DNA of 64,000 bases from Candidatus Avigastranaerophilus sp. (lineage in GTDB: Bacteria > Muiribacteriota > Ozemobacteria > Ozemobacterales > Ozemobacteraceae), in NCBI GenBank assembly GCA_045599645.1, contig JAZRWI010000089.1:33657-97656 (forward strand), given 5' to 3'. A program made the position numbers and the translations under genes. Every line of letters begins with the position of its first letter. The stretch's first letter is position 1. Below are positions 13,694 to 47,330 of this stretch, one piece after another. The notes below the pieces were generated by a model. That model was given only the letters and a program-made list of their open reading frames with translations. It was not told the origin of the DNA and did not search any database.

Positions 13694-13719
13694 TAACGTC
13701 TGATTCGCTTTTGGTAAAA

Positions 13720-21900: not shown

Positions 21901-24900
21901 GGTCTTAGCAGTGCTTTTGGCTATACAAATATAGTTAAAGGAGAATCCGGCAGTGCTTTTGGCTATACCAATACAGCTAATGGTGACTATAGCAGTGCTT
22001 TTGGTTTTTCTAATACTGCTGAAGGAGAATCCGGCAGTGCTTTTGGTAATTCTAATATAGCTAATGCCCTTGAAAGCAGTGCCTTCGGTTTTAACAATGT
22101 TTCTGAAGGAGAATCCGGCAGTGCTTTTGGTAATTCAAATAACGCTTCGGCATTGGGCAGCAGTGCGTTGGGTAATGCAAATAAGGCTTCTGGTGAGAAT
22201 AGCAGCGCAGTAGGTACAAACAACGTTTCTATGGGAGTGGAAAGTACTGCTATAGGTAATTTTAACGAATCTAAGGCGGAAAGCTCCAGTGCCGTTGGTT
22301 ATGGCAATATTGCTACTGGTTTGAGCACTGTGGCTGTTGGTGCTTACAACGAAGCTATCGGGACTGACAGCATTGCTCTTGGTAAAGACAATATCAGCTA
22401 TTTGGAAAATAGTGTCGCTATTGGTTTGTCAAATCAAGCATTTGAGGAAGATTCCAGTGCCGTTGGTGGCTATAATAATGCTTTGGGCGATATCAGTAAC
22501 GCCTTTGGTAATACTAATAATGCCTTAGGCGATTTCAGCCAGGCTTTCGGTGGGTGGAACATAGCTTCAGGCAGCAGCAGCACTGCTTTTGGTATGAGTA
22601 ACTATTCTGGTGGCGATTACAGCGTGGCTATGGGCTTCGGCAACAACTCAGCTTACGATGAAGACGATTTTGTTGGTGGCGTTATAGCTACCTATGCTTC
22701 AGGTCATTTAAGCACCGCAGTAGGTATTAACAACGTAGCAACTGGAGCTCGAAGCATAGCTGTTGGTTTCCAGAACTTCTCAGATGCTGAATCAAGCAGT
22801 GCAGTCGGTTATAAAAATACCGTAGCAGGCGATGCTAGTAATGGTTTCGGCAGTTTGAATGAAGTTAGCGGCGACTACAGTAGCGCTGTTGGTTATCAGA
22901 ATGCTCTTAATGGCGCAAACAGCAATGCTTTCGGTCTTACAAATGATTTGACAGGTGAATATAGCAACGCTTTTGGTGCAAACAATACAGTTAATAACGA
23001 CTACGCTACTGCTATTGGTACATGGAATGACGCTTCAGGTGAATATAGCAGCGCTGTTGGGTATTCTAATACTGTATCAGATTCTTATAACAGCGCTTTT
23101 GGCTCTAACAATATAGTTTCAGAAAACTATTCCAGCGCTTTTGGTTATCAAAATACTATTTCTGGCGGTTCTAGCAACGCTTTGGGTTATAAAAATACAG
23201 TAAGTGGTATTTATAGCAATGCCGTAGGTGCTTATGATTATGTTGGCGGGAATTATAGCACAGCTATTGGTTATGGCAACAATAGCGAGCTTAATTCATA
23301 CTGTTTCCCTACTTCTCTTATTGATTCTGGTGACTATAGCAGTGCAATAGGCTTTAATAATATTTCATCCGGTGAATACAGCAGTGCTTTTGGTAGTGAA
23401 AACAAAGCTACAGATGGTCAAGCCAGTGCTTTTGGGCATGCCAATGAAGCTACTGGTTATGAATCCAGTGCTTTTGGCGCTTATAATGAGGCTCCAGCCG
23501 ATTTCGGAAATGCGTATGGTTATTCAAATATAGCTTCGGGTGAAGACAGTAATGCTTTTGGTGATTGTAACGAGGCTTCTGGCGATTTTAGCAGTGCTTT
23601 TGGTTATGATAATAAAGCTATTGAAGAAGGCAGTAATGCTTTCGGTTATGGGAACCAGGCTAATGGAGCTTATAGCATTGCTCTGGGTGCAGAAAACCAA
23701 GCAAATGCCGATTACAGCGTAGCCATAGGTTATCAGGCGGTTTCAACAGAAGAAAATACCGTTTCCTTTGGTCATAGCATAGGTGACGCTAAGCCTTATG
23801 GAACCTACAGCGATGAACTTAACAGCAGGCTTGTTCATGTTGCTTCAGGCACAGCGAATACCGATGCGGTAAACTACGGTCAGGTAAAGAGCGGCTTTGC
23901 TTCAGCTACCTATAATGCTTCAACAAAGAAACTGACTCTTAAATCAATTGACGGCACAAGCAGTGAACTGATAATTTCCAATGACGGTGGAGATCTTGAT
24001 CTTTCACTTATTAAAAACAGCCTTGGTCTTCTTGATGATAAGCCAAACACCATTAACAGCAGCGGATCTATTGCAATCGGTTCCGAAAATACTTCCGGGG
24101 TTGCCGGTAAGCGTTCAATAGCTATAGGTATTGCCAACTCTTCAACAGGCAGCTATTCTGTTGCTCTTGGTTCCCAAAATGATGTCAGCGGTTTGAATGG
24201 CACTGTAGTGGGACACGAAAACACTTCTAATGGCGCATACAGCAATGCTTTTGGCTACAACAATACTGCATCAGGCAATGAAAGCAATTCCATAGGCTCC
24301 AATAATCTTGCTTCAGGAAACCAGAGCAGCGCTTTTGGTTATGAAAATGTTGCTGTTGCCACTTTAAGCAATGCCTTTGGTTATGACAACTATGTAACAG
24401 GCGAAAGCAGCAGCGCTTTTGGCGTCAGCAATACCGCAACAGGCACAAACAGCAGCGCTTTTGGCTACAATAGCCATGCTGACGGGTATAGAAGCTCTGC
24501 TTTGGGGTATAACAACCTTGCTGGTTCAGCAAACACTATAGCTATTGGTAGTTCCAATATTGCCTTTTCAGAAAGCAGCATTGCCATTGGTGTATCAAAT
24601 ATTGCTTCCGGCGCTTCCAGCATAGCTATTGGCGCCGATAATAAATCTAATGGCGAATCCAGTGTGGCTTTTGGTAGTGGTAATATTACTAATGCAATCT
24701 ACAGCGTGGCTTTTGGTGGCTGGAATGTAGCCTCTGGCACATTAAGTTCTGTCTTTGGCGTTGACAACATTACAGAAGGCCAGCATAGTGTAGCCCTTGG
24801 TGTTGGTAATAATGCCAAAGATTACAATTTTGACGATCCGTCTGCTGGTATTGTAACTACCTATTCGTCTGGTGAAAGAAGTACCGCTGTTGGGGTTAAC

Positions 24901-27900
24901 AACGTAGCTACCGGCACAAGAAGCACTGCTGTCGGTTACCAGAACTTCTCTGATGGCGATTCAAGCACTGCTTTCGGTTACCAGAACTATGCACTGGGTA
25001 AAAACAGTAGCGCGTCTGGTAATGGTAATATTGCTTCTGGAAGCTACAGTAATGCCTTTGGTTCTAAAAGCAAGACCTCCGGTAGTTATAGCAGTGCCTT
25101 TGGTTATTCTAATGCCGCAACAGGCACAAATGCCAATGCTTTTGGTAGCAATAACAATGTATCAGGAAATCAGAGCAGCGCTTTTGGTGTCTTTAATGCT
25201 GTTACTGCTGGTTCAAGCGGTGCCTTTGGTTTTGATAACAGGGCTTATAGCGACAGAAGTAATGCTTTCGGTTATCAGAATACCGCTTCTGGTTCTCAAA
25301 GCAGCGCTATGGGCTTTAAGAACATAGCTGTTGGTGATAACAGCAGTGTCTTTGGTTTTGAAAACTATGCTACAGGTCCGAACAGCCTGGCTTTCGGTTA
25401 TCAGAACCTTACTGATGCTGAAAAGACTTCTGCTTTCGGTTTCCAGAATAGTGCCCTTGGTTCCGGCAGTGTGGCCTTTGGTCATGCAAATAAATCTATT
25501 GGTGAAGACAGTAATGCTGTCGGGTCTGACAATATTGCAACAGGCACTAAGTCTAGTGCTTTTGGTTATTCTAACAAATCAGAAGGTAATGACAGCTCAG
25601 CCATAGGCTACGACAACTATGCAAAAGCTGAACATAGCAGTGCTTTTGGTAGCGATAACGTTGCAACTGGCACTAAGTCAAATGCATTTGGTTATAGTAA
25701 CTATGCTGATGGTGACTATAGCGCTGCTTTTGGTACCGGCAACTATGCCATAGGTAGTAAAACTACTGCTATTGGTCATTCCAACATCACTCTCAGTGAC
25801 TACAGCACTGCTGTTGGTTATAAAAATACTGCTAATGGCACAGACTCAGTTGCAGTTGGCTATAAAAATACTACTAATGGCACAGATTCAGTTGCTGTTG
25901 GTTACCAGAATACTGCTTCTGAAAGATATGATTCTGCAGTTGGTTATAAGAATACAAGCAGCGGTGCTTACAGCTCTACATTTGGTAATGCAAATACAGC
26001 CTCTGCCAGAGGCAGTAATGCAATAGGCTATCGTAATATCGCTGAAGGTCAATACAGTAGCGCATTCGGTGCAGAAAGCCATGCCATAGCCAATGGTAGT
26101 CTTGCTCTTGGTTATCAGTCTGTTGCGAAGGATGTTAATACTGTTTCCTTCGGTCATGCAGCCGATGATCTTGATGTTGACGGCACAGCCTATGGCACTG
26201 ATAAATACAGCAAGCTTGTTTATGTTGCTTCAGGTTCTGCAAATACCGATGCTGTAAACTACGGCCAGATAAAGAGCGACTTTGCATCAGCAACCTATAA
26301 TGCAGCAAATAATAAGCTCGTTCTGAAATCTGTAGACGGCACTACCAGTGAACTGACCATAACAAGTGATGCTGTAGATAATGATTTGTCTTTAATCAAA
26401 AATTCCCTCGGCCTGCTTGATGCTTACCCGAATACCATTAACAGCAGCGGCTCTATAGCTATCGGTTCTAGAAATGTTTCCGGAACATCAGCAGATACTG
26501 CAATCGCTATTGGTATTGGTAATAAGGCTAATGCTGATAAAGCTATCGCTCTTGGTTATGAAAACGAAGTCAGTGGTTCCTCTGGTACTTCATACGGACA
26601 CAACAATGTTGTTAGCGGCAATAATGGTCTAGCCGTTGGTGATAAGAATCAGGCTAAGAGTGACTATAGTAGTGCTGTTGGTTATGAAAACATAGCTTCA
26701 GGTGCAAACTCCACCGCTTTGGGCAGAACCAGCAAGGCTCTTAGTCAATATGCTACAGCTGTCGGTTATAACAATACCGCCTCTGGTAATAGCAGTAATG
26801 CTGTTGGCAAAGGGAATTCGGCTTCGGCTGACAATTCTAATGCTTTTGGTAACAGTAATACTTCTTCTGGCAACAACAGTAGTTCATTTGGTAATGACAA
26901 CTCAGCCTTAGGTTGGGATAGTATCGCTATGGGTAATAAGAACCAGGCTAGAAGTGATTATAGCGTCGCTATTGGTTATGAAAACATAGCTTCAGGTGCA
27001 AGCTCCACCGCTTTGGGCAGAAGCAGCAAGGCTCTTAATCAATCTGCTACAGCTGTCGGTTACAATAACACTGCTTCTGGCAATAGCAGCGCAGCTGTTG
27101 GTTTTGGCAATCAGGCTCTTGGTTCAAACAGCGGAGCCTTTGGTAGAGGCAATACCGCTTCAGGTTCTTTGGCTAACGCTTTTGGTTACAATAACTTAGC
27201 TTCTGGCTCAGATACTACTGCTTTTGGTAATGGTAATCAGGCTACTGGTGGTGCCAGCAACGCTTTTGGTTATCATAACACCGCTTCTGGCAATAGCAGC
27301 ACAGCAATGGGTTCTGGTAACACTGCTTCAGGCAGTGTCAGCACTGCTGTTGGTTATGGTAATATAGCTTCTAATAGCTATAGCAGTGCCTTCGGTTATC
27401 AAAACAAGGCCTACGGCCAGGGAAGCAGTGCTCTTGGTTATGGCAACCAGGCTCTAGGTACGGATGGTGCCGCTGTTGGTTTTAATAATATAGCTTCTGG
27501 AAGTAATAGTAGTGCTTTTGGCGTTAGCAATATTGCTTCCGGTTCTGGAAATGCTGCTTTCGGTAACAACAACAAAGCTTTGGGCGGTGGCAGTGATGCT
27601 TTGGGCTTGGGCAACACTGCTTCAGGTAACAACAGTAGTGCAATAGGCACTGGTAATACAGCTGCCGGCACATATAGTGTTGCCATGGGCTATAGTAATA
27701 CTGTAACAGGTCAGGGCAGCAGTGCTGTTGGTTGGACAAATACTGTATCCGGTCAGGATAGCAATGCCTTCGGTTTCAGGAATGAAGCTCTGGGCGTAAA
27801 CAGCAATGCTTATGGTAAGATGAATAAGGCTCTTGGTTCAACAAGCAGTGCATATGGTTATGAAAATACTGCAACAGGTTCAAACGGTAGCGCTTTTGGT

Positions 27901-30900
27901 TTTTCAAATGACGCTTTCGGAGCTGGCAGTAATGCTTTCGGTTATGACAATACTGCAACAGGTTCTAATAGCAGTGCCTTTGGTTACCAGAACTTCTCTG
28001 ATGGTAATTACAGCACTGCCCTTGGCTATAAAAACAAGGCTTTAAGTCAGTCCACTACAGCTGTTGGTTATGGCAATAATGTTACAGGCAATGAAGGCAG
28101 TGCTTTTGGCTATAGCAATACAATTGAAAGTGCTGGTGCCACAGCTGTGGGGCATGTTAACTCTGCCCTTGGAATGGGTTCTAGTGCTATCGGTAGTGGT
28201 AATACCGCTAATACTGCTGGTACCACTGCTGTTGGTCAGAACAATAGTGCTTCTGGTAGTAGTGCAAATGCCATTGGTAATGCCAATACTACTTCAGGCA
28301 CTCGCAGCAATGCTTTTGGTAGTGGCAACCTTGCCTCTGGTGAAGGCAGCAACGCTTTCGGTATTGATAATAAGGTCACTGGCTCTTATGGCAGTGCTTT
28401 TGGTTATAGTAATAAATCCAATTCAAATAGCAGCGCCATCGGTTATTTTAACGAAGCAAACGGTATCTCTGCCAATGCCTTTGGTTACCAGAACAAGTCT
28501 GGTGGATGGTATAGCAGCGCTTTCGGTTTTGCCAACATTGCTTCAGGTGAGAACAGTGTTTCCTTTGGTTATAAGAATGATTCTTATGGCAATAACAGTG
28601 TGGCTATGGGTTACACTAACTCATCTCTAGCTGCTGATACTGTTGCTGTCGGTTTCTTCAATGAAGCATCAGTAGCCAGCAGCACGGCAATGGGTCTCAG
28701 CAACACCGTAGCTGCTGCCAGCGGCACAGCTGTTGGTATTGGTAATAGAGTAACAGGCGATAATGGCAGCGCATTTGGTCTGAACAACACTTTATCTGGC
28801 AAGGATGGTAGTGTTTTCGGTAAAAACAATACAGCCACAGGCGATTCTGCAACTGTTATCGGTAGTAACAATACCGGAAACGGCAATAATGGAACCGCTG
28901 TTGGGTATGGCAATCTCTCTGATAATATATATGCTAGTGCCATTGGTTCTTGTAATATTGCAGATGGCGAAGAAACCAGCGCTTATGGTTTCAGTAACCA
29001 GGCTAGTGGTGATGGCAGCAATGCTTTCGGTTCCTATAATAGTACAAATGGTTATTATGCCAGTGCCTTTGGTGATTCGAACGTTTCCAGTGGCGAAGAA
29101 AGCAATGCTTTTGGTTCTTACAATAAAGCAAATGTAGATTATAGCAATGCTTTCGGTTATAGAAACATTGCCAGTGGTGTATATAGCAGTGCAATTGGTA
29201 GCCAAAACCAGGCAAAAGGTGATTATAGTCTTGCTCTTGGCTATCAGGCAGTAGCTAATAACGAAAATGAAGTTTCCTTCGGCCATAGTGCAACAGATCT
29301 TGATGTTAGCGGCACAGCCTATGGAAGTGCTAAATATAGCCAACTTACTTATGTTGCTTCGGGTGCAGCAGATACAGACGCTGTAAACTACGGCCAGATA
29401 AAGGGCGCTTATGCTTCAGCAACCTATAATGCTTCAAGCAAAAAACTGGTTCTTACGTCTGTTGATGGCACAACTAACGAACTGATAATTTCTAATGAAA
29501 GTGCTGATCTTGACCTTGATTTGATAAAGAACAGCCTCGGCCTGCTCTCTACTAATCCGAATACCATCAACAGCAGTGGTTCTATTGCTATCGGTTCATT
29601 GAATCATTCCGGTACTTCTCCAGATAAGCTTGGAATAGCTATCGGGGTTAGCAACAGTGCAACTGGCAGCGGTTCTGTGGCTCTTGGTTTCTCAAATTCC
29701 AATAATGGATATTATGCCGTAACATTAGGCAACAATAACGAAGTAACTTACTCTTATGATAGTGCTGTCGGCTATCAGAATAAGGCTTCCAATGCTTATT
29801 CAAGTGCTTTTGGTTATAACAACACGGCAAATGGTATTTATAGCAGTGCCTTTGGTGGTAGCAATACCGCTTCTGGTTATCAGAGCAGCGCTTTTGGTAG
29901 CAGCAATAAAGCTACTGGCCATTACACCAGTGCTATTGGTTATAGGAATACCGCTTCAGGTCCGAATAGTAGTGCTTTCGGTTTTGACAACACTGCTCAT
30001 GCTACTTACAGTGTTGCAATTGGTTATACTAATAACGCATGGGATAACGAAAGCAGCGCTTTTGGTTATAAAAACAATGCTTATCAACAGGGCGACAATG
30101 CTTTCGGTCATAACAATATCGCATCTGGCTCATACAGCAGCGCTTTCGGTTCTGATAACGTTGCAACAGGCTCTCATAGCAGTGCTTTTGGTTTTGGCAA
30201 CGTAACCAATGGCAGTCAGAGTTTGGTTGCAGGTTATTCAAATAAAGTCTATGGCGCTAATTCTTCTGCTATTGGTAAGTCTAATACTGTTATGAAGGAT
30301 AATTCAGTTGCTTTGGGTTCTGATAACAATGTTTACGGCAATCTAAGCAGTGCCATAGGCTATAAAAATACTGCTTATGAAATGTGCAGCAATGCTGTTG
30401 GTCAGCTTAATACTGCATCTGGCACCCATGCAAATGCTTTCGGTTCTGATAACGTCGCAACAGGCTCATATAGTAGCGCCTATGGTTATTATAACTATTC
30501 TGACGGCTCAGACAGCAGTGCTTTTGGTTATAACAACTATTCATTGGGCAATAACAGCACAGCTGTTGGTTATAAAAACCAGACCTCAGCTCTTGAATCT
30601 ACTGCTGTTGGCTCGTTAAATAAGGCTAAAGGCTCCTACAGCACTGCAATAGGTGCTCAAAACCAGGCAAATGGAAATTACAGCACAGCTATAGGCTATC
30701 AGGCTGTTGCAAATGATGACAATACTGTTTCCTTCGGTCATGCAGCTACAGATCTTGATGTTAACGGCACAGCCTATGGAACAGCCAAGTATAGCAAGCT
30801 TACTTATGTTGCTTCAGGCACAGCAGACACTGATGCTGTAAACTTCGGCCAGATAAGAGTTGCTAGAGACGGTAAGTATGTTGTAGCAACAGAAACCTTA

Positions 30901-33375
30901 AGCAATAATGTTCTTTCTCTTGATAATGCTATTAATGGAATGAGCACTTACGTAACAGCTACCGGTCTTAATGCTGACAGCAAAAAGATTGTTAACGTTG
31001 CTGACGGCACAGATGAAAATGACGCTGTAAATGTTAAGCAGATAAGTCTTACCAGCAATGGCATACATGTAGCAAAGGGCAACACCTTGAGTGAAAATAT
31101 ACTTTCTCTTGATTCTGCTATTGGTGATATGAGCAGCTTCGGTACTAACAATATTGCAAAGAGCACTAATGTTGCAGCCAATTTGAAGAGCCTTGATACT
31201 GCCATCGGTGATATGAGCGGCTTCAGCACCAGCAATTATTTTGCAAAGAGCTCTAACGTGGCTGATAACCTTAAGAGTCTTGATACTGCAATCGGTGACA
31301 TGAGCGGCTTCAGCACCAGTAACTATTTTGCAAAGAGCAATACCAGCGTAGCAACCAACCTGAAGAACCTTGATACTGCTATTGGCGAACATGCAGCCAG
31401 CAGTACCATTCATATTACTTCCGCTGAAAGAGATACCTGGAATGCTAAACAGGATGCTCTCGATGCTAGTCAGACCAGAGCAATTAATTCTGGTATTACT
31501 GCAGACCTGGTAGCTAAATACAATACTTATGTTACTGATTCCGGTCTCAACGCCAATAATAAGAAGATTACAAACCTTGCTTCCGGAACATCTGATACAG
31601 ACGCAGTAAGCTTTGGTCAGATAAGACTTACCAGAGATGGCAAATATATTGTAGCAACAGATACCTTGAGCAATAACCTTCTTGCTCTTGATACTACCAT
31701 TGGCAGTATGAGCGGTTTTATTACAGATAAAGGTATTGATGCAGGTAACAAGAAGATTATAAATGTTGCTTCTGCAACAATAGATTCTGATGCTGTCAAC
31801 TTTGGTCAGATAAGACTTACCAGAGACGGTAAGTATGTTGTAGCAACAGATACATTAAGCAACAATATTCTTTCTCTTGATAAGACTCTTGATAACATGA
31901 GCGCTTATGTAACTACTTCCGGCCTCAATGCCAATAATAAAAAGATCACTAAGGTGGCTGCCGGTTCAGAAGACACAGATGCTGCCAACTATGGCCAGAT
32001 AAAGAATGCTTATGTTGGCGCAACCTACGACGCTGATACCAACAAGCTTACTTTGACAAAGGTAAACGGTGAAAAGAGCGAAGTTCAGATAACCTCTTCC
32101 AAGGAGCTTGAAAAGAAGGTTAACAAGAACCAGCAGGACATCAAGAAGAATGCTGATGCTATAAAGGCAAATTCTGAGAATATTGGTAAGAACGCCAGCA
32201 ATATTGCTAAGAATACAACCAACATCAATAACAATGCTGTTGATATCACTAAGATAAAATCAGATTTAGGTATGGTTTCAACCAAGGAAAATAAATCTGA
32301 CGGTAATGGCTGTATTACTATTGGTTCCGGCAATATTGCCAACGGCTTTGGTGACATTACCATGGCTATTGGTAGCGGCAACAAGGTTTATGGAACTAAT
32401 TCCATAGCTATAGGCTACGGCCACGAAGTAACCGGTAATAATTCAGGTGCTTTCGGTGACCCGACCTACATTAAGGCAGACAATGCCTATGCTATTGGTA
32501 ACAACAATAATATCAGCGGTAATGGCAGCTTTATTGTTGGTAACAACAGCAATGTAAGCGGTTCAGACAGTTTTGTTGTTGGCACAAAGAGCAAGGTAAC
32601 CAAAGAAAACAGCTTTGTTGTTGGCAGTAATAGCACTGTAAGCGGTAAGAACTCAATTGCCATAGGCAGCAATGCTGTTGTTGAACACAATAACGCTGTA
32701 GCTCTTGGTGAAGGCTCAAAGACCTATGCAGATAACAGTGTTTCTGTTGGCACCAAGGAAAAGCAGCGTGTTATCCAGAATGTTGCATCAGGCACTATGG
32801 ATACAGATGCAGTAAACTACGGCCAGTTGAAGGATTACGTTGCTAATAACAGTGCCGGTGCAGCTGAAATGAACCAGATTAATAAGAACTTTAACAGACT
32901 TGATAACAAGATTAACAGCGTCGGTGCCGGCGCAGCAGCTCTTGCCAGTCTCAGACCTATTGACAGTGACAAGGATGTTAAGTGGAGTGGCGGTATCGGC
33001 TATGGTAACCTTCATGGCAAGTCCGCAGCCGCTATTGGCGTATTCTACAGACCGTCACCTGATGTTGTCTACAGTGTTGGCGCTAACGCCGGCGGTGAAG
33101 ACAACATGGTTAATGCTTCTATCAACTTCGCTTTCGGTCATGTTGACAGAAACAAGGATGGAAAGATTATAAAGGCAAGTTCTGGTGACAACAAGAGAAT
33201 TAATGCCCTTGCTGAAGAAAACGAAGAGCTCAGGGCAATGCTGGCTGACCAGAACGTTAAGCTCTGTGTTCAGGACGCAAAGCTTAATGCTCAGACCAAT
33301 AAGATTAACAATCAGGATGTCAGAATCAGACAGCTTGAACGTATGATCAAAAAAATGTCAGAAAAAGGAAAATAA
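18988..33375 (+). CDS. Giant trimeric autotransporter adhesin (type Vc; YadA/Hep_Hag-type head repeats)
   Basis: 4795-aa ORF. The likely start is ATG 19027 (MQKDKKYRIR..AMALAVALSVFLQSTTVSFA signal peptide). Head repeats of the form S-x-A-x-G-x-x-N-x-A-x-G fall into four blocks. Each block ends with a neck junction NTVSFGH..SKL(V/T)YVASG..TDAVNYGQIK, at about nt 23750, 26130, 29265 and 30715. A coiled-coil stalk follows, then a YadA-type anchor (AGAAALASLRPID..NASINFAFG, nt 32905-33141), then a 77-aa tail. Confidence 0.93.
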   Translation: MIELILMDICRHKMQKDKKYRIRADIKKRAMALAVALSVFLQSTTVSFAAAPTFGAGSGTNSTAAGVNNTADGANSTAVGLGNTANGSHNVAVGSTNNADGTYTAALGTYNNINGYESNAIGDDNNVTGSHTNAIGSRNTTDANNSNAIGSYNKAMAENSSAFGYKNTANGENSVAFGFANLAEIGSSTAIGVSNTANGDESSALGFSNIATGSLSSAIGAENIADGNYSSAFGGHNKANGILSNAFGYFNEVNGYTNVAMGSNNTASGSYASAMGTFNKIYYGHESNAIGDDNTASGTRTNAIGSYNQTYANYSNAIGTQNNTNGEYASAFGAENTAGGEYSSALGYHNTASGYFSSAVGSENKAYADYGSAIGVYNYVNQESASALGYKNTSSGLESSAMGAENTASGETSSAIGNKNSAEGVNASSVGVENTAAAFSSAVGYFNKAVGGNSFAFGGYNEANGNFSSAFGIGNDAFGRDSTAMGSENAATGNKSLAIGYANNREFIPILSILSPVDAIDTGENSTAVGYVNVAIGTNSSALGYMNRTEGENSTAVGYKNSSAGLRSSSIGYNNVASGTNSTAVGYSNNAHDSMSAAMGTGNEAIGEFTSAIGSSNYVKGYESNAIGDDNNALGMNSNAVGSHNEVYDNNSNAIGTGNYIEGENSSAFGTENEVILSNSSAFGLSNSVSGEKSNALGYKNEVLTNDSNAIGSLNKSKGGLSSAIGYSNEASGYMGTAVGYGNSAFANGSSALGNANQANSYESSAIGAKNIAKGPQSSAFGASNTALLSYSTALGYNNIANAEYSNAFGNVNRANSDYSSAVGVGNIANGYFSSAFGANNIAEGDYSNIFGIDNEAWAENSTAVGYVNVTSGANSSAFGAENAAGGDYSTAVGYKNEVTNKHSIALGSLNSVAAMQSSAIGYKNVVSAYEGTAVGNYNEARDVSAGAFGYSNKAIGEESYAFGGYNEAHGGLSSAFGYTNIVKGESGSAFGYTNTANGDYSSAFGFSNTAEGESGSAFGNSNIANALESSAFGFNNVSEGESGSAFGNSNNASALGSSALGNANKASGENSSAVGTNNVSMGVESTAIGNFNESKAESSSAVGYGNIATGLSTVAVGAYNEAIGTDSIALGKDNISYLENSVAIGLSNQAFEEDSSAVGGYNNALGDISNAFGNTNNALGDFSQAFGGWNIASGSSSTAFGMSNYSGGDYSVAMGFGNNSAYDEDDFVGGVIATYASGHLSTAVGINNVATGARSIAVGFQNFSDAESSSAVGYKNTVAGDASNGFGSLNEVSGDYSSAVGYQNALNGANSNAFGLTNDLTGEYSNAFGANNTVNNDYATAIGTWNDASGEYSSAVGYSNTVSDSYNSAFGSNNIVSENYSSAFGYQNTISGGSSNALGYKNTVSGIYSNAVGAYDYVGGNYSTAIGYGNNSELNSYCFPTSLIDSGDYSSAIGFNNISSGEYSSAFGSENKATDGQASAFGHANEATGYESSAFGAYNEAPADFGNAYGYSNIASGEDSNAFGDCNEASGDFSSAFGYDNKAIEEGSNAFGYGNQANGAYSIALGAENQANADYSVAIGYQAVSTEENTVSFGHSIGDAKPYGTYSDELNSRLVHVASGTANTDAVNYGQVKSGFASATYNASTKKLTLKSIDGTSSELIISNDGGDLDLSLIKNSLGLLDDKPNTINSSGSIAIGSENTSGVAGKRSIAIGIANSSTGSYSVALGSQNDVSGLNGTVVGHENTSNGAYSNAFGYNNTASGNESNSIGSNNLASGNQSSAFGYENVAVATLSNAFGYDNYVTGESSSAFGVSNTATGTNSSAFGYNSHADGYRSSALGYNNLAGSANTIAIGSSNIAFSESSIAIGVSNIASGASSIAIGADNKSNGESSVAFGSGNITNAIYSVAFGGWNVASGTLSSVFGVDNITEGQHSVALGVGNNAKDYNFDDPSAGIVTTYSSGERSTAVGVNNVATGTRSTAVGYQNFSDGDSSTAFGYQNYALGKNSSASGNGNIASGSYSNAFGSKSKTSGSYSSAFGYSNAATGTNANAFGSNNNVSGNQSSAFGVFNAVTAGSSGAFGFDNRAYSDRSNAFGYQNTASGSQSSAMGFKNIAVGDNSSVFGFENYATGPNSLAFGYQNLTDAEKTSAFGFQNSALGSGSVAFGHANKSIGEDSNAVGSDNIATGTKSSAFGYSNKSEGNDSSAIGYDNYAKAEHSSAFGSDNVATGTKSNAFGYSNYADGDYSAAFGTGNYAIGSKTTAIGHSNITLSDYSTAVGYKNTANGTDSVAVGYKNTTNGTDSVAVGYQNTASERYDSAVGYKNTSSGAYSSTFGNANTASARGSNAIGYRNIAEGQYSSAFGAESHAIANGSLALGYQSVAKDVNTVSFGHAADDLDVDGTAYGTDKYSKLVYVASGSANTDAVNYGQIKSDFASATYNAANNKLVLKSVDGTTSELTITSDAVDNDLSLIKNSLGLLDAYPNTINSSGSIAIGSRNVSGTSADTAIAIGIGNKANADKAIALGYENEVSGSSGTSYGHNNVVSGNNGLAVGDKNQAKSDYSSAVGYENIASGANSTALGRTSKALSQYATAVGYNNTASGNSSNAVGKGNSASADNSNAFGNSNTSSGNNSSSFGNDNSALGWDSIAMGNKNQARSDYSVAIGYENIASGASSTALGRSSKALNQSATAVGYNNTASGNSSAAVGFGNQALGSNSGAFGRGNTASGSLANAFGYNNLASGSDTTAFGNGNQATGGASNAFGYHNTASGNSSTAMGSGNTASGSVSTAVGYGNIASNSYSSAFGYQNKAYGQGSSALGYGNQALGTDGAAVGFNNIASGSNSSAFGVSNIASGSGNAAFGNNNKALGGGSDALGLGNTASGNNSSAIGTGNTAAGTYSVAMGYSNTVTGQGSSAVGWTNTVSGQDSNAFGFRNEALGVNSNAYGKMNKALGSTSSAYGYENTATGSNGSAFGFSNDAFGAGSNAFGYDNTATGSNSSAFGYQNFSDGNYSTALGYKNKALSQSTTAVGYGNNVTGNEGSAFGYSNTIESAGATAVGHVNSALGMGSSAIGSGNTANTAGTTAVGQNNSASGSSANAIGNANTTSGTRSNAFGSGNLASGEGSNAFGIDNKVTGSYGSAFGYSNKSNSNSSAIGYFNEANGISANAFGYQNKSGGWYSSAFGFANIASGENSVSFGYKNDSYGNNSVAMGYTNSSLAADTVAVGFFNEASVASSTAMGLSNTVAAASGTAVGIGNRVTGDNGSAFGLNNTLSGKDGSVFGKNNTATGDSATVIGSNNTGNGNNGTAVGYGNLSDNIYASAIGSCNIADGEETSAYGFSNQASGDGSNAFGSYNSTNGYYASAFGDSNVSSGEESNAFGSYNKANVDYSNAFGYRNIASGVYSSAIGSQNQAKGDYSLALGYQAVANNENEVSFGHSATDLDVSGTAYGSAKYSQLTYVASGAADTDAVNYGQIKGAYASATYNASSKKLVLTSVDGTTNELIISNESADLDLDLIKNSLGLLSTNPNTINSSGSIAIGSLNHSGTSPDKLGIAIGVSNSATGSGSVALGFSNSNNGYYAVTLGNNNEVTYSYDSAVGYQNKASNAYSSAFGYNNTANGIYSSAFGGSNTASGYQSSAFGSSNKATGHYTSAIGYRNTASGPNSSAFGFDNTAHATYSVAIGYTNNAWDNESSAFGYKNNAYQQGDNAFGHNNIASGSYSSAFGSDNVATGSHSSAFGFGNVTNGSQSLVAGYSNKVYGANSSAIGKSNTVMKDNSVALGSDNNVYGNLSSAIGYKNTAYEMCSNAVGQLNTASGTHANAFGSDNVATGSYSSAYGYYNYSDGSDSSAFGYNNYSLGNNSTAVGYKNQTSALESTAVGSLNKAKGSYSTAIGAQNQANGNYSTAIGYQAVANDDNTVSFGHAATDLDVNGTAYGTAKYSKLTYVASGTADTDAVNFGQIRVARDGKYVVATETLSNNVLSLDNAINGMSTYVTATGLNADSKKIVNVADGTDENDAVNVKQISLTSNGIHVAKGNTLSENILSLDSAIGDMSSFGTNNIAKSTNVAANLKSLDTAIGDMSGFSTSNYFAKSSNVADNLKSLDTAIGDMSGFSTSNYFAKSNTSVATNLKNLDTAIGEHAASSTIHITSAERDTWNAKQDALDASQTRAINSGITADLVAKYNTYVTDSGLNANNKKITNLASGTSDTDAVSFGQIRLTRDGKYIVATDTLSNNLLALDTTIGSMSGFITDKGIDAGNKKIINVASATIDSDAVNFGQIRLTRDGKYVVATDTLSNNILSLDKTLDNMSAYVTTSGLNANNKKITKVAAGSEDTDAANYGQIKNAYVGATYDADTNKLTLTKVNGEKSEVQITSSKELEKKVNKNQQDIKKNADAIKANSENIGKNASNIAKNTTNINNNAVDITKIKSDLGMVSTKENKSDGNGCITIGSGNIANGFGDITMAIGSGNKVYGTNSIAIGYGHEVTGNNSGAFGDPTYIKADNAYAIGNNNNISGNGSFIVGNNSNVSGSDSFVVGTKSKVTKENSFVVGSNSTVSGKNSIAIGSNAVVEHNNAVALGEGSKTYADNSVSVGTKEKQRVIQNVASGTMDTDAVNYGQLKDYVANNSAGAAEMNQINKNFNRLDNKINSVGAGAAALASLRPIDSDKDVKWSGGIGYGNLHGKSAAAIGVFYRPSPDVVYSVGANAGGEDNMVNASINFAFGHVDRNKDGKIIKASSGDNKRINALAEENEELRAMLADQNVKLCVQDAKLNAQTNKINNQDVRIRQLERMIKKMSEKGK

Positions 33376-33512
33376 AACTTAGGTATTAAAACTTAGGTAT
33401 TAGGTATTAGGTATTAGGTATTAGGTATTAGGGATTAGGGATTAGGGATTAGGGATTAGGGATTAGGGATTAGGTATTAGGTATTAGGGGTTAGGAGGCC
33501 CCAACCCCTAAT
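33376..33512. repeat. Heptamer array TTAGGTA/TTAGGGA plus 10-bp-stem hairpin between the two adhesin genes
   Basis: It starts directly after the stop at 33373-33375. The order is 2 x AAACTTAGGTATT, then (TTAGGTA)n, then six TTAGGGA units (GGG runs at 33431-33468), then TTAGGTA. The hairpin ATTAGGGGTT..AACCCCTAAT lies at 33483-33512. Confidence 0.95.
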
Positions 33513-33575
33513 ACTTGACCCCGCTGCCTGAGAATCGGGCAGCATATATAGTATCTGTATACAAGGAAGTAGCAG

Positions 33576-36500
33576 ATGTTGTGCAAAAGAAAAAGAGAAT
33601 TTAATCAAAAATTCTGCTTTAAAAGGGATTTGAAGAGCAGAATAGTAGCTATTACTGTTGCGTTGTCTGTTTTTTTACAGACGACAACAGTTTCCTTTGC
33701 TGCTGCTCCGACAATAAACAATGGCTCTGGCATTGACAGCACCGAGGCTGGTGTTGATAATATTGCTTTTGGCGATTACAGCAGCTCCTTTGGCTATATG
33801 AATGTTGCAACAGGCTCGAACAGCAGCGCTTTTGGTTATAAGAATTTTTCTGATGGCAGTGGCAGCGTGGCTTTGGGCTTTTCTAATCTTGCTGCAGGTT
33901 ATTCAGCAATAGCAGTTGGTAGTGGTAATGTCGTTGAAGGCTATAACGGAACTGCTTTTGGCTTTGGGAATAAATCACTAGATGTATATAGCAATGCAGT
34001 TGGAGCTAGCAATATTGCTAAGGGCGAAGAAGCCAGCGCCTTTGGTTTTACTAACCAGGCAAATGGTGGTGGCAGCAATGCTTTTGGTTCTAACAATATT
34101 GCAAATGGTGATTATTCCAATGTTTTTGGGGATTCTAATACCGCTGATGGCAAAGAAAGCAATGCTATTGGTTATAATAACAATGCAACAGGCAATAATA
34201 GTATTGCTATAGGAAGTGGGAATACAACTAGTCTTGATTCTAGTATCGCGGTTGGGGTTTCTAATGCTGCAAGTGCTAACTATGCCAGTGCTTTTGGTTT
34301 TTCTAACTATGCAAAAGCCAGTGGTAGCAATGCTTTTGGGAAAGGCAATATTGCCTCTGGCACTTTTAGCAATGCTTTTGGTGTTGAAAACAAGGCCATA
34401 GGCAATAATAGCAGTGCGTTTGGCTCTAACAATGAAGCAGTTGGTGAAAAAAGCCTGGCTGTAGGTTACGAAAACCATTCGAATGGTTTATATAATTCTG
34501 CTTTGGGATACCAGAACTATTCTAATGGAGATAACAGCTTAGTTGCCGGTTATGGTAACAAGGCTAATGGTAAAAACAGTTATGTTATTGGTTTTCAAAA
34601 CATTGCTGATGGTGAAACAGATATTGCATTAGGTAGCTTTAATGAAGTTTATGCCACAGACACTTATGTTTTCGGTAGTTATAATTATGTTGAAGAAGGA
34701 AACAATAATGTTGCTCTTGGTGAATATAATGACATTTTATATGGCGAAAACAACACTCTGGTAGGCCATTACAATAGCGCTGCTGATGGTGATGATAATG
34801 TTGCTGTAGGTAGCAATAATAGAACAAAAGGTAATAATAATATTGCAATAGGCAATATGAACAATGCTGTAGATAACAGTATTGCAATAGGCTATCAGAA
34901 TAACTACAAGGGCTACAATAGCTCTACTCATAGACATGAATTCTATACACCTGGTGCAAACAGCACTTCGGTCGGTTATAAGAATGTCGCAACAGGCACC
35001 AACAGCAACGCTTTCGGTTATGCTAATATTTCAACAGGCGATAACAGCAGTGCCTTTGGTAATCAAAATACTGCATCTGGATCATACAGCAGCACCTTTG
35101 GTTATAATAACGCTGCTGATGGAACTTTCAGTTCTGCAATAGGGGTTGGTAATATTGCTCTTGGCACAGAAGCCTTTGCTTTCGGTAGTGGTAATGATGC
35201 CATCGGTTATATGAGCACTGCCATGGGTCATCATAACGAAGTTCCGGCCAGTTACGGCATTGCCATCGGTTACATGAATAAATCCCGTGATGAATATGGT
35301 GTTGCCATCGGTGTTTATAATGAGGCTAACGGAAACATCAGCAATGCTATTGGTGGCTACAACAGAGCCTATGGTGAACTAAGCAGTGCTTTTGGTAGAG
35401 ACAACGTTGCTTCTGCTGCAAACGCCAACGCCTTTGGGCGAAACAATAATGCAATGGGTGAAAACAGTAGCGCCTTTGGTTATAACAATACTGCTACAGA
35501 TTCCAACAGCAGTGCCTTCGGGTATAACAATACTGCCAATGGCATTAATTCCAGCGCCTTAGGTTCTTCCAATACTGTAAATGGTCAGGAAAGCACTGTT
35601 ATTGGTTATTGGTCAAAAGTTACTGGTAATGCATCCACCGTTGTTGGACGTGCTAGTAATGTAACAGGCAATAATAGCAATGCTTTTGGTTACTACAACG
35701 TTGTTACTGCTTCTTTATCAAGTGCTATAGGCAGTAGCAATGTGGCTAAGGGATATATCAGTAATGCTGTCGGCTGGAGCAACAACGCTAACGAAGAAGG
35801 CGGTCAGGCCTTTGGTGGTTATAATACAGCAGATGGTAACCGCAGCAGCGCCTTTGGTTATTGGAATATTGCTACAGGTAGTCAAAGCAATGCTTTTGGT
35901 TATTATAACAAGGTTAATAATAACAATAGTAATGCTTTTGGGAATGGCAATAACATCTATAGTAGCAGCAGCAATGCTTTCGGTAGAGCTAATACTGCTT
36001 CTGGCAGCTATTCCAATGCTTTTGGTTCCGAAAATAAAACTTATGGTAGCAATAGCAATGCTGTTGGTCATTCAAACGAATCAATAGGCTCTAAGAGCAG
36101 TGCTTTTGGTTACGATAATACAGCTACCGGCAGTAACAGTAGCGCTTTCGGGTATGCGAATAAAGCTGAGGGCTCGAACAGCAATGCTTTTGGTAATCAG
36201 AATACGGCTGGCGGTATTTATAGTGTTGCTGTTGGTTACAATAACTCAGCCATGAATGAAAAAAGCATCGCTTTTGGGTATGGCAGCATCGCATCTGCTG
36301 CTTACACTACGGCCATCGGTTATCAGAATAAGGCCATGGATTTCGGAAGTGTTGCCATTGGTTCTGGCAATGAATCATACAATAATCATACTATAACCAT
36401 GGGTAAAAATAATATTGCTACAGGCGGTGTTGCTGTTGGTAGCGATAATAAGATAATCGGGGCGATTGCTTTTGGTTCAGGCAATACAGCTACGGGCACA

Positions 36501-39500
36501 TCAGGAAGTGCGATTGGTTATAATAATATTGCTATAGGTGAAAGAGGCACCGCTGTTGGTTATGTGAATAAAGCAACGGCTGGTTGGACCACTGCTGTTG
36601 GTTATCAGAATGAAGCTAATGGTTTTACAAGCAGTGCCTTTGGTTATAAGAGTATAGCCAATGGCGACTATAGCAGTGCTATAGGTAAGGAAAATCAGGC
36701 TCTTGGCAATAGCAGCAGTGCTTTTGGCAATAGCAACACTGCTTCTGGTTCCTTCAGTAATGCTTTTGGCTATAATAATATAGCCTCTGCTTCTGATACT
36801 AACGCTTTTGGTGAAGGTAACAAGGCTTTAGGCAGTTATAGCAGTGCTTTTGGTAGAAGCAATACTTCATCTGGTAGTAGCAGTACTGCTTTTGGGGTTG
36901 ATAATAAGGCTTCAGCCGCAAATAGTCATTCTTATGGCGGTTCAAACCAGGCCTTAGGCGAAAATAGTAATGCCTTCGGTTTTACAAACCAGGCAACAGG
37001 CCTGAACAGCAGTGCTTTCGGCAAGGAAAACAAAGCCATAGATAACAACACAAGTGCTTTTGGTCTTTGCAGTGTTGCTTCAGGTACTGGTAGTAACGCT
37101 TTTGGTTTTTATGATGTTGCTTCAGGCAGCGATAGTAATGCCTTTGGTAAAAGTAATAATGCTTTGGGTAACAGCAGCAATGCCTTCGGTGGTGGTAATA
37201 CTGCTTCAGGTGGAAACAGCAGTTCATTCGGTGTTGGTAATACTTCTTCAGGTTCTGACAGTAGTGCTTTTGGTTTCAGAAATCAGGCAACAGCTCTTAA
37301 CAGCAGTGCTTTTGGTAAGGAAAATAAAGCTATTGGTTTGTATACCAGTGCTTTTGGTTATAGCAACACTGCTTCTGGAACCTTTGGCAATGCCTTTGGC
37401 TATGGAAATATTGCTTCAGGCTCAGACAGCAACGCCTTTGGTAAAGAAAACAAGGCTTTGGCAGAAAACAGCAGTGCCTTTGGTAAAGGCAATACTGCAT
37501 CTGGTGGAAGCAGCAATGCTGTCGGTAGTGGAAATCAGGCATTAGAAGGCAACAGCAATGCTTATGGCACAAATAACAAGGCCAAAATAGAATATAGTAG
37601 TGCCTTTGGTTGCAGCAATACTGCAGATGGCAAATTTGGTAATGCTTTTGGTTATCTCAACTCTGCTTCAGGTTTTGACAGTAATGCTTTTGGTAAAGAA
37701 AACAGAGCTCTTTCAACAAACAGCAGCGCCTACGGTAAAGGCAATGTTGCTTCCGGAACAAGCAGTAATGCCTTTGGTCTGACTAATGTTGCTTCTGGTG
37801 ATAACAGCAATGCAGTTGGTGGAAGCAATTATGCCTTATACGGTGGCGGCAATGCTTTTGGCTCTGGCAACTATGCTTCATCTACAAACGCTAATGCTTT
37901 CGGCCGCGATAACAAAGTTTATTCCCCATATACTGATGCTTTTGGCTCTGGCAATGTGGCATCAGGAAGCTTTGCCAATGCTTATGGTTATAACAACATT
38001 GCTTCTGGCGTAGACAGCAACGCCTTTGGTAAAGACAATAAAGCTCTTGAATCAAACAGCAGTGCATATGGTAGAAGCAATACTGCTGAAGGTATTTATA
38101 GCAATGCTTTTGGTTATGGCAATACAGCATCAGGCAGTAGTAGCAGTGCTGTCGGTCGTGAAAATTATGTGGTAGGGACAGAAAGCAGTGCTTTTGGTAG
38201 TGGTAATAAAGCTTACAATAGTTTCAGCAGTGCTTTTGGTCAGAACAATTTGGCTACAGGTAGTTACACCAGTGCTTTTGGTTGTCAGAATGTTGCTTCT
38301 GGCGCGAAAGCAGTAGCCATGGGTATCAAGAATGTTTCTGACGGTGAAAATAACGTATCTGTCGGTAATAATAACAAAGCCAATAATTATAATTCTAATG
38401 CTTTAGGTATCGATAACACATCTTCAGGCAATAAGAGCAATGCTGTTGGTGTTGCTAATATCTCTACAAGAAGTGAAAGCAGTGCTTTCGGTAACAACAA
38501 TAAGGCTTATGCTGATTACAGCAGCGCCTTTGGTCATAATAATACTGCTTCAGCTACTTATAGCAGCGCCTTTGGTCATGACAATACTGCTTCTGGATCA
38601 AACAGCAGTGCTTTTGGTTACAGCAATATGGCTGCTAGTAACAACAGCAGTGCCTTTGGTGGTAAAAATCAGGCAACAGGTCTCAATAGCAGTGCTTTTG
38701 GTTTAAACAATATTGCTTCCGAAAACTATAGCAGTAGCTTTGGTCAGGGAAATTCTGCTTTGGCTGGTAGCAGCAGTGCTTTTGGCCGTGGTAATATTGC
38801 CTCAGGTTTTGATAGTAGTGCTTTTGGTAGAGAAAACAAGACAATGGGTAGCGATAGTTCTGCCTTTGGTAGAAGTAATACTGCTTCTGGCTCTAAAAGT
38901 GTTGCATTTGGTTACGGCAATACCGCTTCGGGTGCTTCCAGTATAGCTATTGGTAGCGGCAATGTGGCTAATGACAGCGATGGCAGCGCTTTTGGTTATA
39001 ATAATATTTCAACAGGTAACAACAGCAGTGCCTTTGGTTATAGCAATAATGTTTCAGGCATACAAAGTAGCGCTTTTGGTGCTTCCAATAAGGTAACCGG
39101 CGGTTTAAGCAATGCCTTTGGTTATGGCAATATTGCTTCAGATACATATACTAGCGCATATGGTTATATGAATGCAGTAGAAGGTAATAACAGCAGCGCC
39201 TTTGGTTATCGCAATACAGCTTCAAAAGCTACTGCTATCGGTATTTCCAATATCTCACAGGGTGGCAGTGCTGCTTTGGGTAGTAATAACATAGCCACAG
39301 GCTCCAGTAGTATTGCCGTTGGTTTGAACAACAAATCACTGGCTCAGAATACAAGCACCTTTGGCTCTGACAATATTGTTACCGGGAACATTGGTAATGC
39401 TATTGGTAGTAGCAACAAGGTATCCGGTTCAAGCGGCAATTCTTTTGGTAGTAGTAATGAAGTTACCAGCTCCTGGAGCAATGCCTTTGGTAGTAAGAAC

Positions 39501-42500
39501 AAATCTACTGGCGGCTACAGCAACGCTTTTGGTCATAATAATATTGCTTCAGGTCTTTATAGCAGCGTATTTGGTAATGAAAGCCAGTCTATTGCTAATG
39601 GTAGTCTTGCTCTTGGTTATCAGGCTGTTGCAAAGGATGCTAATACTGTTTCCTTTGGTCATGCTGCAGAAGATTTGAATGTCAGTGGCACAGCCTATGG
39701 CACAGATAAGTATAGCAAGCTTGTTTATGTTGCTTCAGGTTCTGTAAATACAGACGCTGTAAACTACGGCCAGATAAAGAGCAGCTTTGCTTCAGCAACC
39801 TATAATGCTGCTGACAACAAGCTTGTTTTGAAGGCTGTAGATGGCACTACCAGTGAGCTCACTATAACAAGTGAAGCTGTAGGCGATGACTTGACTTTGA
39901 TCAAGAATTCCCTCGGCCTGCTTACTGCTAATCCAAACACCATCAACAGCAGCGGTTCAATCGCTATCGGTTCAAAGAACATTTCAGGTACTACAGACAA
40001 TCTTTCAATTGCAATGGGTTTCCAGAATACATCTAATGGCTCTGCTAGCATGGCAATAGGTTCTAATAACTCTGCTATAGCTATGAACTCTTCTGCTGTC
40101 GGCTCATTGAATAAGGCTAATAATCCTTACAGCGCTGCTATGGGTTATAACAATACAGCCGAAGGCACTTATGCTAATGCATTTGGTGTTAACAATACTG
40201 CGAAAGGCCTCAATACTTCGGTTTATGGCTATAATAATACTGTTGAAGGCAGCTTCAGTATGGCTTTTGGTCTGGATAATACTGTTGAAAATACAAATAA
40301 TACGGCATTTGGTTTAAGCAATACCTCTAATGGCAATTATAGTAATGCTTTCGGTTACAACAATGAATCAACAGCCAAGCATTCTAATGCTATTGGTGCT
40401 TACAATGTAGCATCTGCTGAATACAGCCTTGCTTACGGTTATCATAACCTTGCATACAATAAAAGCTCAAGCGCATTTGGTAATGGAAATACTGCAAGGG
40501 GAGATTCTTCCGTTGCTTTCGGTCTTGGCAATAGTACCTTTGCTGTAAATGCCAGTGCCTTGGGTGCAGGCAACAATGCCTATGGACTTATGTCCAGTGC
40601 TATTGGTGTTGTAAACGAAGCCAGCGGAGATTACTCCAATGCTTATGGTGTCAGTAACTATGCTTTGGCAGAAGGCGCCAGCGCATTCGGTTATGTAAAT
40701 GCTGCCTATGGTTTATTTAGTAATGCAATAGGTGCTGAAAACCAGGCATTCGGCAATTTCAGCACAGCCATAGGTTATCAGGCTGTTGCATATGATGATA
40801 ACACAATTTCCTTCGGCCACAGTAAAGGCGATTTGGATCTTGAAGGTAATCCTTATAGCACTGATAGATACAGCAAGCTTGTTTATGTAGCTTCAGGTTC
40901 TGCAAATACCGATGCTGTAAACTACGGCCAGATAAAAGTTGCCAGAGACGGTAAGTATGTTGTAGCAACAGAAACCTTAAGCAATAACATTCTTTCTATT
41001 GATAATGCCATTAATGGAATGAGTACTTACGTAACAGCTTCTGGTCTTAATGCTGCCAGCCAAAAGATTGTTAATGTTGCTGACGGTGTAGATGCCAATG
41101 ATGCTGTAAATGTTAAGCAGATAAGTCTTACCAGTGACGGTATTCATGTAGCAAAAGCCAGTTCTTTGAGCAGTAATATGCTTTCTCTAGATTCTGCTAT
41201 TGGCGATATGAGCAGTTTCAGCACCAGCAACTATTTTGCTAAGAGCTCAAATGTTGCAGACAATATTAAGAGTCTTGATACTGCGATTGGTGATATGAGC
41301 GGCTTCAGCACCAGCAACTATTTTGCCAAGAGTAATACCAGTGTTGCAACCAACCTGAAGAATCTTGATACAGCTATTGGTGAACATACTGCTAGTAGCG
41401 CCGTTCATATAACTTCTGCTGAAAGAGACGCCTGGAATGCTAAGCAGACTGCTCTGAATGCTGACCAGACATTGGCAGTCAATTCCGGTATTACTGCTGA
41501 CATGGTAACAAGGTATAACTCTTATATTACCGCTTCAGGCTTCAATGCAAACAGCAATAAGATCATAAATGTTTCTGCCGGCACATCAGATACGGATGCA
41601 GTTAACTACAGCCAGATAAAGAATGCTTATGTTGGCGTCGCTTACGCTTCAGCAACAAATAAGCTTACTCTGACCAAGGTTAATGGCGAAACAAGTGAAA
41701 TTGAAATTTCCAGTGGAAGCGATGAAGACCTTGCAAGAAAGGTTGAACAGAATAAGCAGGATATCAGCAATAACACTGCAGCTATCAATACCAATACGGA
41801 TAACATCAATAAAAACAAGACCAGTATTGCCAAGAATTCTGATGATATCAAGGCTAATGCTGATAATATCAACAAAAATAAGACCAGTATTGCCAAGAAT
41901 TCTGATGACATCAAGGCCAATGCAGATAACATCAACAAGAACAAAACCAGTATTGCCAAGAATTCTGATGATATCAAGGCCAATGCAGATAACATCAACA
42001 AGAACAAGACTAGTATTGCCAAGAATACTGAAGCTATAAACGCTAATGCCGCAAATATCAGCAAGAACACAACCAATATCAACGCAAATGCTGTTGATAT
42101 TACTAAGATAAAATCAGATCTCGGTATGGTCTCAACCAAGCCGCAGAATCAATCTGATGGTAATGGGTGCATCACTATTGGTTCCGGCAACATTGCCAGT
42201 GGTTCCGGCGCTGTTACCATGGCTATTGGTAGTGACAACAAGGTTTCTGGAGCTAATTCCATAGCTATTGGCTACGGCCACATAATAAACGGCAGCAATT
42301 CTGGCGCCTTTGGTGACCCGACAGACATTGAAGCTGATAATGCCTATGCTATCGGTAACAGCAATAATATCAGCGGTAATGGCAGCTTTATTATTGGTAA
42401 TAACAGCAATATCAGCGGCGCAGGTAGTTTTGTCATGGGCACAAATAGTAAGGTAACTAATGATAGCAGCTTTGTTGTTGGAAGCAATAGCACTGTAAGC

Positions 42501-46949: not shown

Positions 46950-47330
46950 CCGATTTTTTAGCCTCGGTTTAAGTAGGTGTGTGGTTTGCCAGCGTAGGTT
47001 TTTGCTTGGCGAAAGTAAGCAGGAAAACCTCCCTTGGTCCCTCCTTGGGAAGGAGGGTTAGAAGTGAAATAGCCGATGAGCAGGGCAAATAACCGATTTT
47101 TTAGCCTCGGTTTAAGTAGGTGTGTGGTTTGCCAGCGTAGTTTTTTTGCTTGGCGAAAGTTAGCAGGAAAACCTCCCTTGGTCCCTCCTTGGGAAGGAGG
47201 GTTAGAAGAGAAATAGCCGATGAGCAGGGCAAATAACCGATTTTTTAGCCTCGGTTTAAGTAAGTGTGTGGTTTGCCAGCGTAGGTTTTTGCTTGGCGAA
47301 AGTAAGCAGGAAAACCTCCCTTGGTCCCTC
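46935..47330. repeat. 143/144-bp tandem repeat x3 (third copy truncated), each with a GC-rich palindrome
   Basis: Units start at 46935, 47078 and 47222 (GAGCAGGGCAAATAACCGATTTTTTAGCCTCGG..). Each contains CCCTCCTT-GGG-AAGGAGGG. The first unit supplies the last codons and the stop of the glycosyltransferase gene. Track ORFs 46958..47365(-) and 47220..47429(+) are artefacts. Confidence 0.92.

Follow-up and report, generated by a model that had tools for sequence, protein, structure and literature searches.

Does the G-rich heptamer array lying between two giant adhesin genes serve this pair as a purpose-built regulator or recombination initiator, or is it an ordinary intergenic repeat? The question arises in the 64-kb window (the whole stretch of DNA that was analysed, 64,000 nt), where the array begins 3 nt past the stop codon of adhesin-1 and the next ATG is found approximately 80 nt from the array end. 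The features of the locus were as follows.

18988-33375, plus strand: adhesin-1, an ORF of 4795 aa for a trimeric autotransporter-type adhesin, with its stop codon TAA at 33373-33375
33373-33400, plus strand: 14-nt direct duplication, two copies of TAAAACTTAGGTAT, with the stop codon within (Tandem Repeats Finder, TRF, 33373-33402, period 14, 100% matches)
33379-33490, plus strand: heptamer array, 16 units in one strict 7-nt register
33431-33468, plus strand: potential G-quadruplex (GGGATTA)5GGG from a regex scan, six G3 tracts with 4-nt loops on the coding strand
33466-33522, plus strand: hairpin 1, a predicted fold of approximately 17-20 bp with its core at 33477-33518
33523-33543, plus strand: hairpin 2, a predicted fold GCUGCCUGA-GAA-UCGGGCAGC of 9 bp with one U.G pair and no U tract after it
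33564-33578, plus strand: ribosome-binding site AAGGAAG (33564-33570) and the adhesin-2 ATG (33576)
33576-43298, plus strand: adhesin-2, an ORF of 3240 aa, paralogue of adhesin-1

Adhesin-1 showed the Pfam domain YadA_head (E 4e-204) together with YadA_stalk repeats, and homologues of its C-terminal piece bear YadA_anchor PF03895. The two adhesins were 77% identical over the aligned C-terminal ~384 aa. No close adhesin orthologues were found in the protein collections, where the best hits reached 49% for the C-terminal piece of adhesin-1 and 47% for the N-terminal piece of adhesin-2. In addition, the JGI metagenome scan showed no relative of the adhesin-1 C-terminus, and exact look-ups of ack and adhesin-2 gave no match.

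The 16 units of the array were ordered as TTAGGTA, TTAAAAC, five TTAGGTA, six TTAGGGA (33428-33469), two TTAGGTA and a final TTAGGGG, most of them carrying GGT, not GGG. TRF reported the array at 33393-33495 with period 7, 14.7 copies, 95% matches and a score of 150. The pattern TTAGGKATTAGGKA produced 13 matches compared to 0.08 expected by chance, and TTAGG[GT]A was found within the 64-kb window at the array locus only. The earlier note had described tandem heptamers right after the adhesin-1 stop with six TTAGGGA in succession, GGG runs at 33431, 33438, 33445, 33452, 33459 and 33466, and a G3-N4-G3 motif on the coding strand; the in-register parse reproduced the tandem units, the start positions were exact and the motif was a canonical match at 33431-33468. 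Formation of a quadruplex by the array is plausible by analogy with (GGGAATC)3GGG, which has tracts and loops of the same lengths. Only three canonical quadruplex motifs were present in 64 kb, at 33431-33468 (plus strand), 18181-18212 (minus strand) and 47394-47409 (minus strand). The second, (GGGGCTT)5, lies in a heptamer mosaic upstream of adhesin-1 and is the sole other array-borne motif. The third, the compact GGGAGGGTAGGGAGGG, was found just past a 144-bp tandem repeat of 2.8 copies (46935-47330), on the distal border of the region that follows the glycosyltransferase gene.

Period 7 alone was enriched in the window: it had 12 runs covering 1,643 nt of the 64 kb, and the other periods from 4 to 12 had 0-2 runs. 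The units were varied (AAGCTAT, CCAAGCC, TTCTAGC, TTAGGTC, TAATTCA and ATTGAGA) and most were without a G tract. Arrays of AAGCTAT/AAGCTCC/AAGCCCC were found at 11515-11830 and 18147-18846, a TTCTAGC array at 43910-44447 and (TTAGGTC)11, one letter off TTAGGTA, at 43701-43781, while the stop codon of adhesin-2 itself starts a (TAATTCA)n array. Five of the eight array ends in the window fold onto downstream inverted units. In the (TTAGGTC)11 region (43701-43870), the end of the array forms a long, imperfect hairpin that AAAACCTAA closes. The core ATCACCCCTATACATCCACTGCTATAAAA precedes (TTAGGTC)11 and recurs ahead of the TTCTAGC array at 43860-43905.

A scan for (TTAGGGA)3 in one genome per bacterial species produced more than 120 stretches, which is a lower bound, in Planctomycetota, Acidobacteriota, Bacteroidota, Cyanobacteria, Chloroflexota, Clostridia, Negativicutes, Xanthomonas and others; rumen and gut metagenome-assembled genomes were included among the matches listed. 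The 120 loci among the matches listed (852 kb) held 287 period-7 runs compared to 7-20 for periods 5, 6, 8 and 9, and 71 of them carried a further heptamer array of another unit. When 84 arrays among the matches listed were read with the G strand on top, the 5'-side ORF was at a median distance of 14 nt and the 3'-side ORF at 90 nt (64 vs 20, p = 1.6e-6), the ORFs in the 120 comparison loci having been called crudely as the longest ORFs. An inverted copy at ≤100 nt was found on the 3' side in 22 of 103 arrays among the matches listed and on the 5' side in none of the 103, with 1 of 253 in controls; the median gap of these copies was 23 nt and their median span 24 nt. At the adhesin locus, the inverted copy begins 14 nt past the array end, spans 10 nt and has no counterpart on the 5' side, a geometry that falls inside the range of the listed TTAGGGA arrays. 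Copy numbers of the listed arrays peaked at 5 units with a second peak at 8, and not sharply at the minimal four. In many of the listed arrays the TAG of the first unit was itself the stop codon of the upstream ORF (distance -4). The count of 122 TTAGGGA arrays as all intergenic was dropped as evidence, since three or more units carry TAG or TAA in all six frames.

TTAGGGA arrays after stop codons, with the G strand as the sense strand and an inverted copy on the 3' side, were thus present in unrelated bacteria beside unrelated neighbour genes. The array is not specific to the adhesin-1/adhesin-2 locus, because the window holds 12 period-7 arrays mostly without a G tract and because TTAGGGA recurs, likewise placed, by unrelated genes in many bacteria. 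A purpose-built regulator or recombination initiator for the adhesin pair is therefore not supported. Instead, the array is probably an ordinary intergenic heptanucleotide simple sequence repeat (SSR), born by slippage and belonging to the G-rich subclass known from Xanthomonas and Nostoc, in which the stem-loops would be likelier to matter than the quadruplex.

That subclass was described by Rehm et al. 2015 (PMC4692102) as G-rich heptameric SSRs with the units GGGAATC in Xanthomonas and GGGGAYT in Nostoc PCC 7120. The repeats are intergenic, lie nearer the 5'-side ORF (28 vs 160 nt), occur as convergent inverted pairs, vary in length and are transcribed, and their function was not established (PMC4692102). 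The array at the adhesin locus resembles them in its tandem 7-nt units with at least four tracts of three or more G, which the six TTAGGGA provide, in its position nearer the 5'-side ORF (3 nt vs approximately 80 nt) and in a convergent inverted partner with which it can fold into a stem-loop, namely hairpin 1. It differs from them in its unit (GGGATTA/GGTATTA), in its host, an uncultured gut bacterium, and in an inverted partner of only approximately 2 units. The window as a whole also resembles genomes with short tandemly repeated repetitive (STRR) sequences in heterocystous cyanobacteria and other long SSRs, in which numerous period-7 arrays with different units lie between genes, are lineage-specific and are presumed to arise by slippage: its 12 runs are non-coding and of several unit types, and arrays are missing at the same sites in sister species. 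The STRR units differ in sequence from those of the array. Finally, the TAACTGA repeats of Beggiatoaceae are found a few nt upstream of start codons in 2-6 copies (MacGregor 2015, PMC4679880), unlike the array, whose 16 units lie against a stop codon.

Downstream of the array, hairpin 1 pairs the final ~2.5 array units, GGUAUUAGGGGUUAGG, with the downstream inverted copy CCCCAACCCCUAAUAC; within the fold at 33466-33522 the inverted copy reads CCCCAACCCCTAATAC. Hairpins 1 and 2 jointly gave -42 kcal/mol with z = -6.0. The hairpin with a 10-bp stem proposed earlier was real and was understated, as the fold pairs approximately 17-20 bp, and hairpin 2 was absent from that account. The distance from the end of the proposed hairpin (33512) to the adhesin-2 ATG (33576) was 64 nt as claimed. 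A scan of 33200-33700 likewise agreed with the claim of a hairpin without a T tract: stems were present with no T run after them, so no intrinsic (Rho-independent) terminator was found there, and no sigma-70-like promoter was found in the same interval. No Rfam family reached its gathering score, and 33300-33650 gave chance-level matches only.

Repetitive extragenic palindromes (REP/BIME) of enterobacteria are stem-loops that lie just after stops between co-oriented genes. They have no U tracts and can make the mRNA upstream of them more stable. The hairpins of the array are similar in being stem-loops after a stop codon, between co-oriented genes and without a U tract. However, REPs are dispersed palindromic units and not tandem heptamers, and no sequence relationship exists between the two.

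Related strains were represented by the gut-metagenome runs X30, X46, X33 and X25, in which 5' parts of adhesin-2 were present at approximately 90% identity. These data are Logan contigs (31-letter words), which end inside the array, and unit numbers are unreadable in them. The X46 contig begins within the last part of the array; at 33488/33489, in hairpin 1, it differs by a net +7-nt indel, and it keeps hairpin 2 as CTGCCCGAGAATCGGGCAGC, with the U.G pair changed to C-G. A -10-like TATAGT was not conserved in X46. The X30 contig begins in TTAGGTA-like units, and an unrelated AT-rich spacer replaces both hairpins. A joint from 33434 to 33554 in X30 was rejected as a clean deletion, since the 30 nt before 33554 are unrelated and AT-rich and represent a replaced spacer. 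An array thus persists at the site in X46 and X30, and the hairpins are replaceable. Overall, the array was present at the adhesin site in all three strain lineages seen, despite approximately 10% divergence. This persistence in three lineages, together with the pair-preserving change in hairpin 2, could reflect selection, not neutrality.

Transcription across the site was indicated by one 106-nt contig of metatranscriptome X2, which covers 33328-33432 with one mismatch and runs from adhesin-1 across the stop into the array. X2 was the sole RNA run with traces of the organism, which was otherwise barely present there; the contig has low depth, and DNA carry-over is possible. A further RNA search produced only a seawater run sharing array words. 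The earlier suggestion that read-through RNA could carry the motif agrees with this contig from one RNA library.

For the ordinary SSR, a course of events can be proposed. The sequence itself shows a duplication at the start of the array and unit variants arranged in blocks. The TAAAACTTAGGTAT duplication at the adhesin-1 stop is the probable seed of the heptamer array, from which the array would have grown in place by replication slippage. A single T-to-G variant of one unit, TTAGGTA to TTAGGGA, would then have spread by slippage into the block of six, which incidentally makes the G3N4 quadruplex motif. Since most arrays of the window are without a G tract, the motif is read as a one-letter variant spread within a TTAGGTA array, that is, as a probable by-product and not a selected feature. 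A short inverted copy of its own units at the array end, a frequent ending for arrays of this kind, would give rise to the strong hairpin. The array would be transcribed as the 3' UTR of adhesin-1 or as its intercistronic spacer, and the two stem-loops, if they have any effect, may form a barrier at the RNA 3' end, stabilise that end or cause partial pausing that needs no U tract. The most likely effect of the locus is that of a presumed 3'-UTR or intercistronic RNA stem-loop.

A point against a neutral SSR is the position of the site: a giant adhesin gene begins 78-200 nt downstream, the arrangement in which the 7-bp repeat of Haemophilus hmw acts. In Haemophilus influenzae, the (ATCTTTC)n repeat of hmw1A/hmw2A lies in the 5' UTR, between the mapped promoter and the ATG (Rapun-Araiz et al. 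2025, PMC12721329). Ten repeats pair with a downstream arm into a long hairpin, and RNase III processing and a dose effect have been shown experimentally (PMC12721329). By analogy, adhesin-2 would have the array and hairpin 1 in its 5' UTR or intercistronic leader, its output would be set by the unit number as a graded phase variation, and the hairpin with its downstream arm would possibly be cut by RNase III. The likeness extends to a heptamer array upstream of a large adhesin gene, repeats paired with a downstream arm in a stable hairpin 64 nt before the ATG, and a G-rich element in the structure; the precedent of a heptamer upstream of the HMW1A gene (PMC12721329) and the retention of the array in related strains are also in its favour. 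Since the interval from the array to the ATG gave no promoter and TATAGT was not conserved in X46, adhesin-2 transcripts may start upstream of the array. However, approximately 2.5 units enter the stem compared to 10 in hmw, so that unit number would hardly alter the fold and no long hairpin with many repeats in one arm is formed; the G-rich element is here the repeat arm itself, and the structure is a predicted one. X30 has the array and neither hairpin, the same architecture is found beside unrelated genes in many phyla, and Rehm et al. saw no association with surface genes (PMC4692102). Such a control of adhesin-2 is considered unlikely.

A broader version would take the polarity across phyla (22 vs 0) as the trace of an undescribed directional synthesis or use of the repeats, by fold-back or template switching tied to transcription or replication, joined at this locus to a leader of adhesin-2 like that of hmw, driven by slippage and of the RNase III type. 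This combination is regarded as quite unlikely.

The surroundings of the array were compared with those in sister species, whose contigs were reached through ack and were collinear with the window on both sides. Contigs L124, L125 and L126 are in the same protein cluster (≥90%) as the window ack, with approximately 75-80% nucleotide identity, and L121 shows 87% amino-acid identity. Blastn of the window against these four, together with gene maps, delimited one further feature.

15118-44481, no strand assigned: insertion of 29.4 kb relative to the sister species, holding an AAA ATPase (AAA_14/DUF4143), two small ORFs, the heptamer mosaic and both adhesins with their arrays

In L124, L125 and L126 the methyltransferase and glycosyltransferase genes adjoin, 13-30 nt apart, and L121 is without the glycosyltransferase as well as without the island. 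No integrase was seen in the 15118-44481 block. The array thus lies on a strain-variable adhesin island. No period-7 arrays were found in approximately 60 kb of sister-species sequence, which also lacks the (AAGCTAT)40 array seen upstream of ack in the window; the arrays of the window are therefore young and lineage-specific.

Other differences from the sister species were seen around the island. The glycosyltransferase has 829 aa in the window compared to 765 aa in L124 and L125, and the gap in the nucleotide alignment at 44734-44916 would fit a lineage-specific insertion. The DnaJ/TPR/cold-shock-domain and FecR-like genes (47635-50360) are inverted as a pair relative to L124 and L125 (blastn, opposite strand) and have the orientation seen in L121. 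The acetate kinase gene ack (12485-13693) showed a few close relatives at 87-92%, followed by approximately 76% to Lachnospiraceae/Clostridia enzymes. This likeness to Clostridia is odd if the host is not a Firmicute, and horizontal transfer may be involved. Directly after ack, at 13716-13750, a perfect 16-bp bidirectional intrinsic terminator with T tracts was found, which indicates that the genome uses canonical terminators.

The location of all arrays on or beside the 29.4-kb insertion would also agree with a dispersing composite element (array, core hairpin, array) that was inserted after the stop and did not grow in place. Conserved cores are tied to other arrays of the window, for example one ending in TATACATCCACTGCTATARAA before 43701 and 43910, and GGCCTGCTTTCTCGGCC loops are found at 11832, 18314 and 18623; the strict polarity across phyla of a G array followed by its inverted copy points the same way. 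However, the array at the adhesin locus has none of those cores and its 5' end grades into the local 14-nt duplication that holds the stop codon. A search of the window gave no transposase, no target duplication and no further copies of the hairpins. Insertion of such an element is very unlikely.

A quadruplex with a function of its own was considered as a block to transcription or replication (an attenuator), or as an initiator of recombination for gene conversion between the adhesin paralogues. The pilE G4 in Neisseria starts the recombination that drives gene conversion. At the adhesin locus, donor and recipient sequences exist in the 77% identical C-terminal parts, six G3 tracts with 4-nt loops stand on the coding strand and a second G4-capable array, (GGGGCTT)5 at 18181-18212 (minus strand), lies upstream of adhesin-1. 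In addition, circular dichroism in vitro showed K+-dependent G4 folding of (GGGAATC)3GGG, which likewise has G3 tracts separated by 4-nt loops, and in Xanthomonas starts and ends of transcripts are more frequent at repeats able to form a G4 (PMC4692102). Set against this, G tracts are missing from the majority of the heptamer arrays in the window, the units of the G block differ by a single letter from the TTAGGTA units around them, and the copy numbers elsewhere, among the matches listed, have their peaks at 5 and 8 and not sharply at four. A dedicated role of the quadruplex is held to be highly improbable. Finally, the earlier term "telomere-like" stands for a resemblance of letters only, and a telomere repeat was rejected, as the array is internal to a bacterial contig, between two same-strand ORFs, and TTAGGGA is common inside bacterial contigs.

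The placement and polarity rules known from Xanthomonas and Nostoc are extended here to TTAGGGA in many phyla, and the question is sharpened to why the units are heptamers, why they lie flush with stop codons and why the G array always comes first. If adhesin-2 is tuned in the manner of hmw, graded control of adhesins by heptamer repeats would exist outside Pasteurellaceae. If the array is an ordinary SSR, as is probable, the finding would be of value for annotation: similar arrays in assembled gut and rumen metagenomes would be neither telomere remnants nor purpose-built switches, and would be slippage-prone spacers that break assemblies at adhesin islands.
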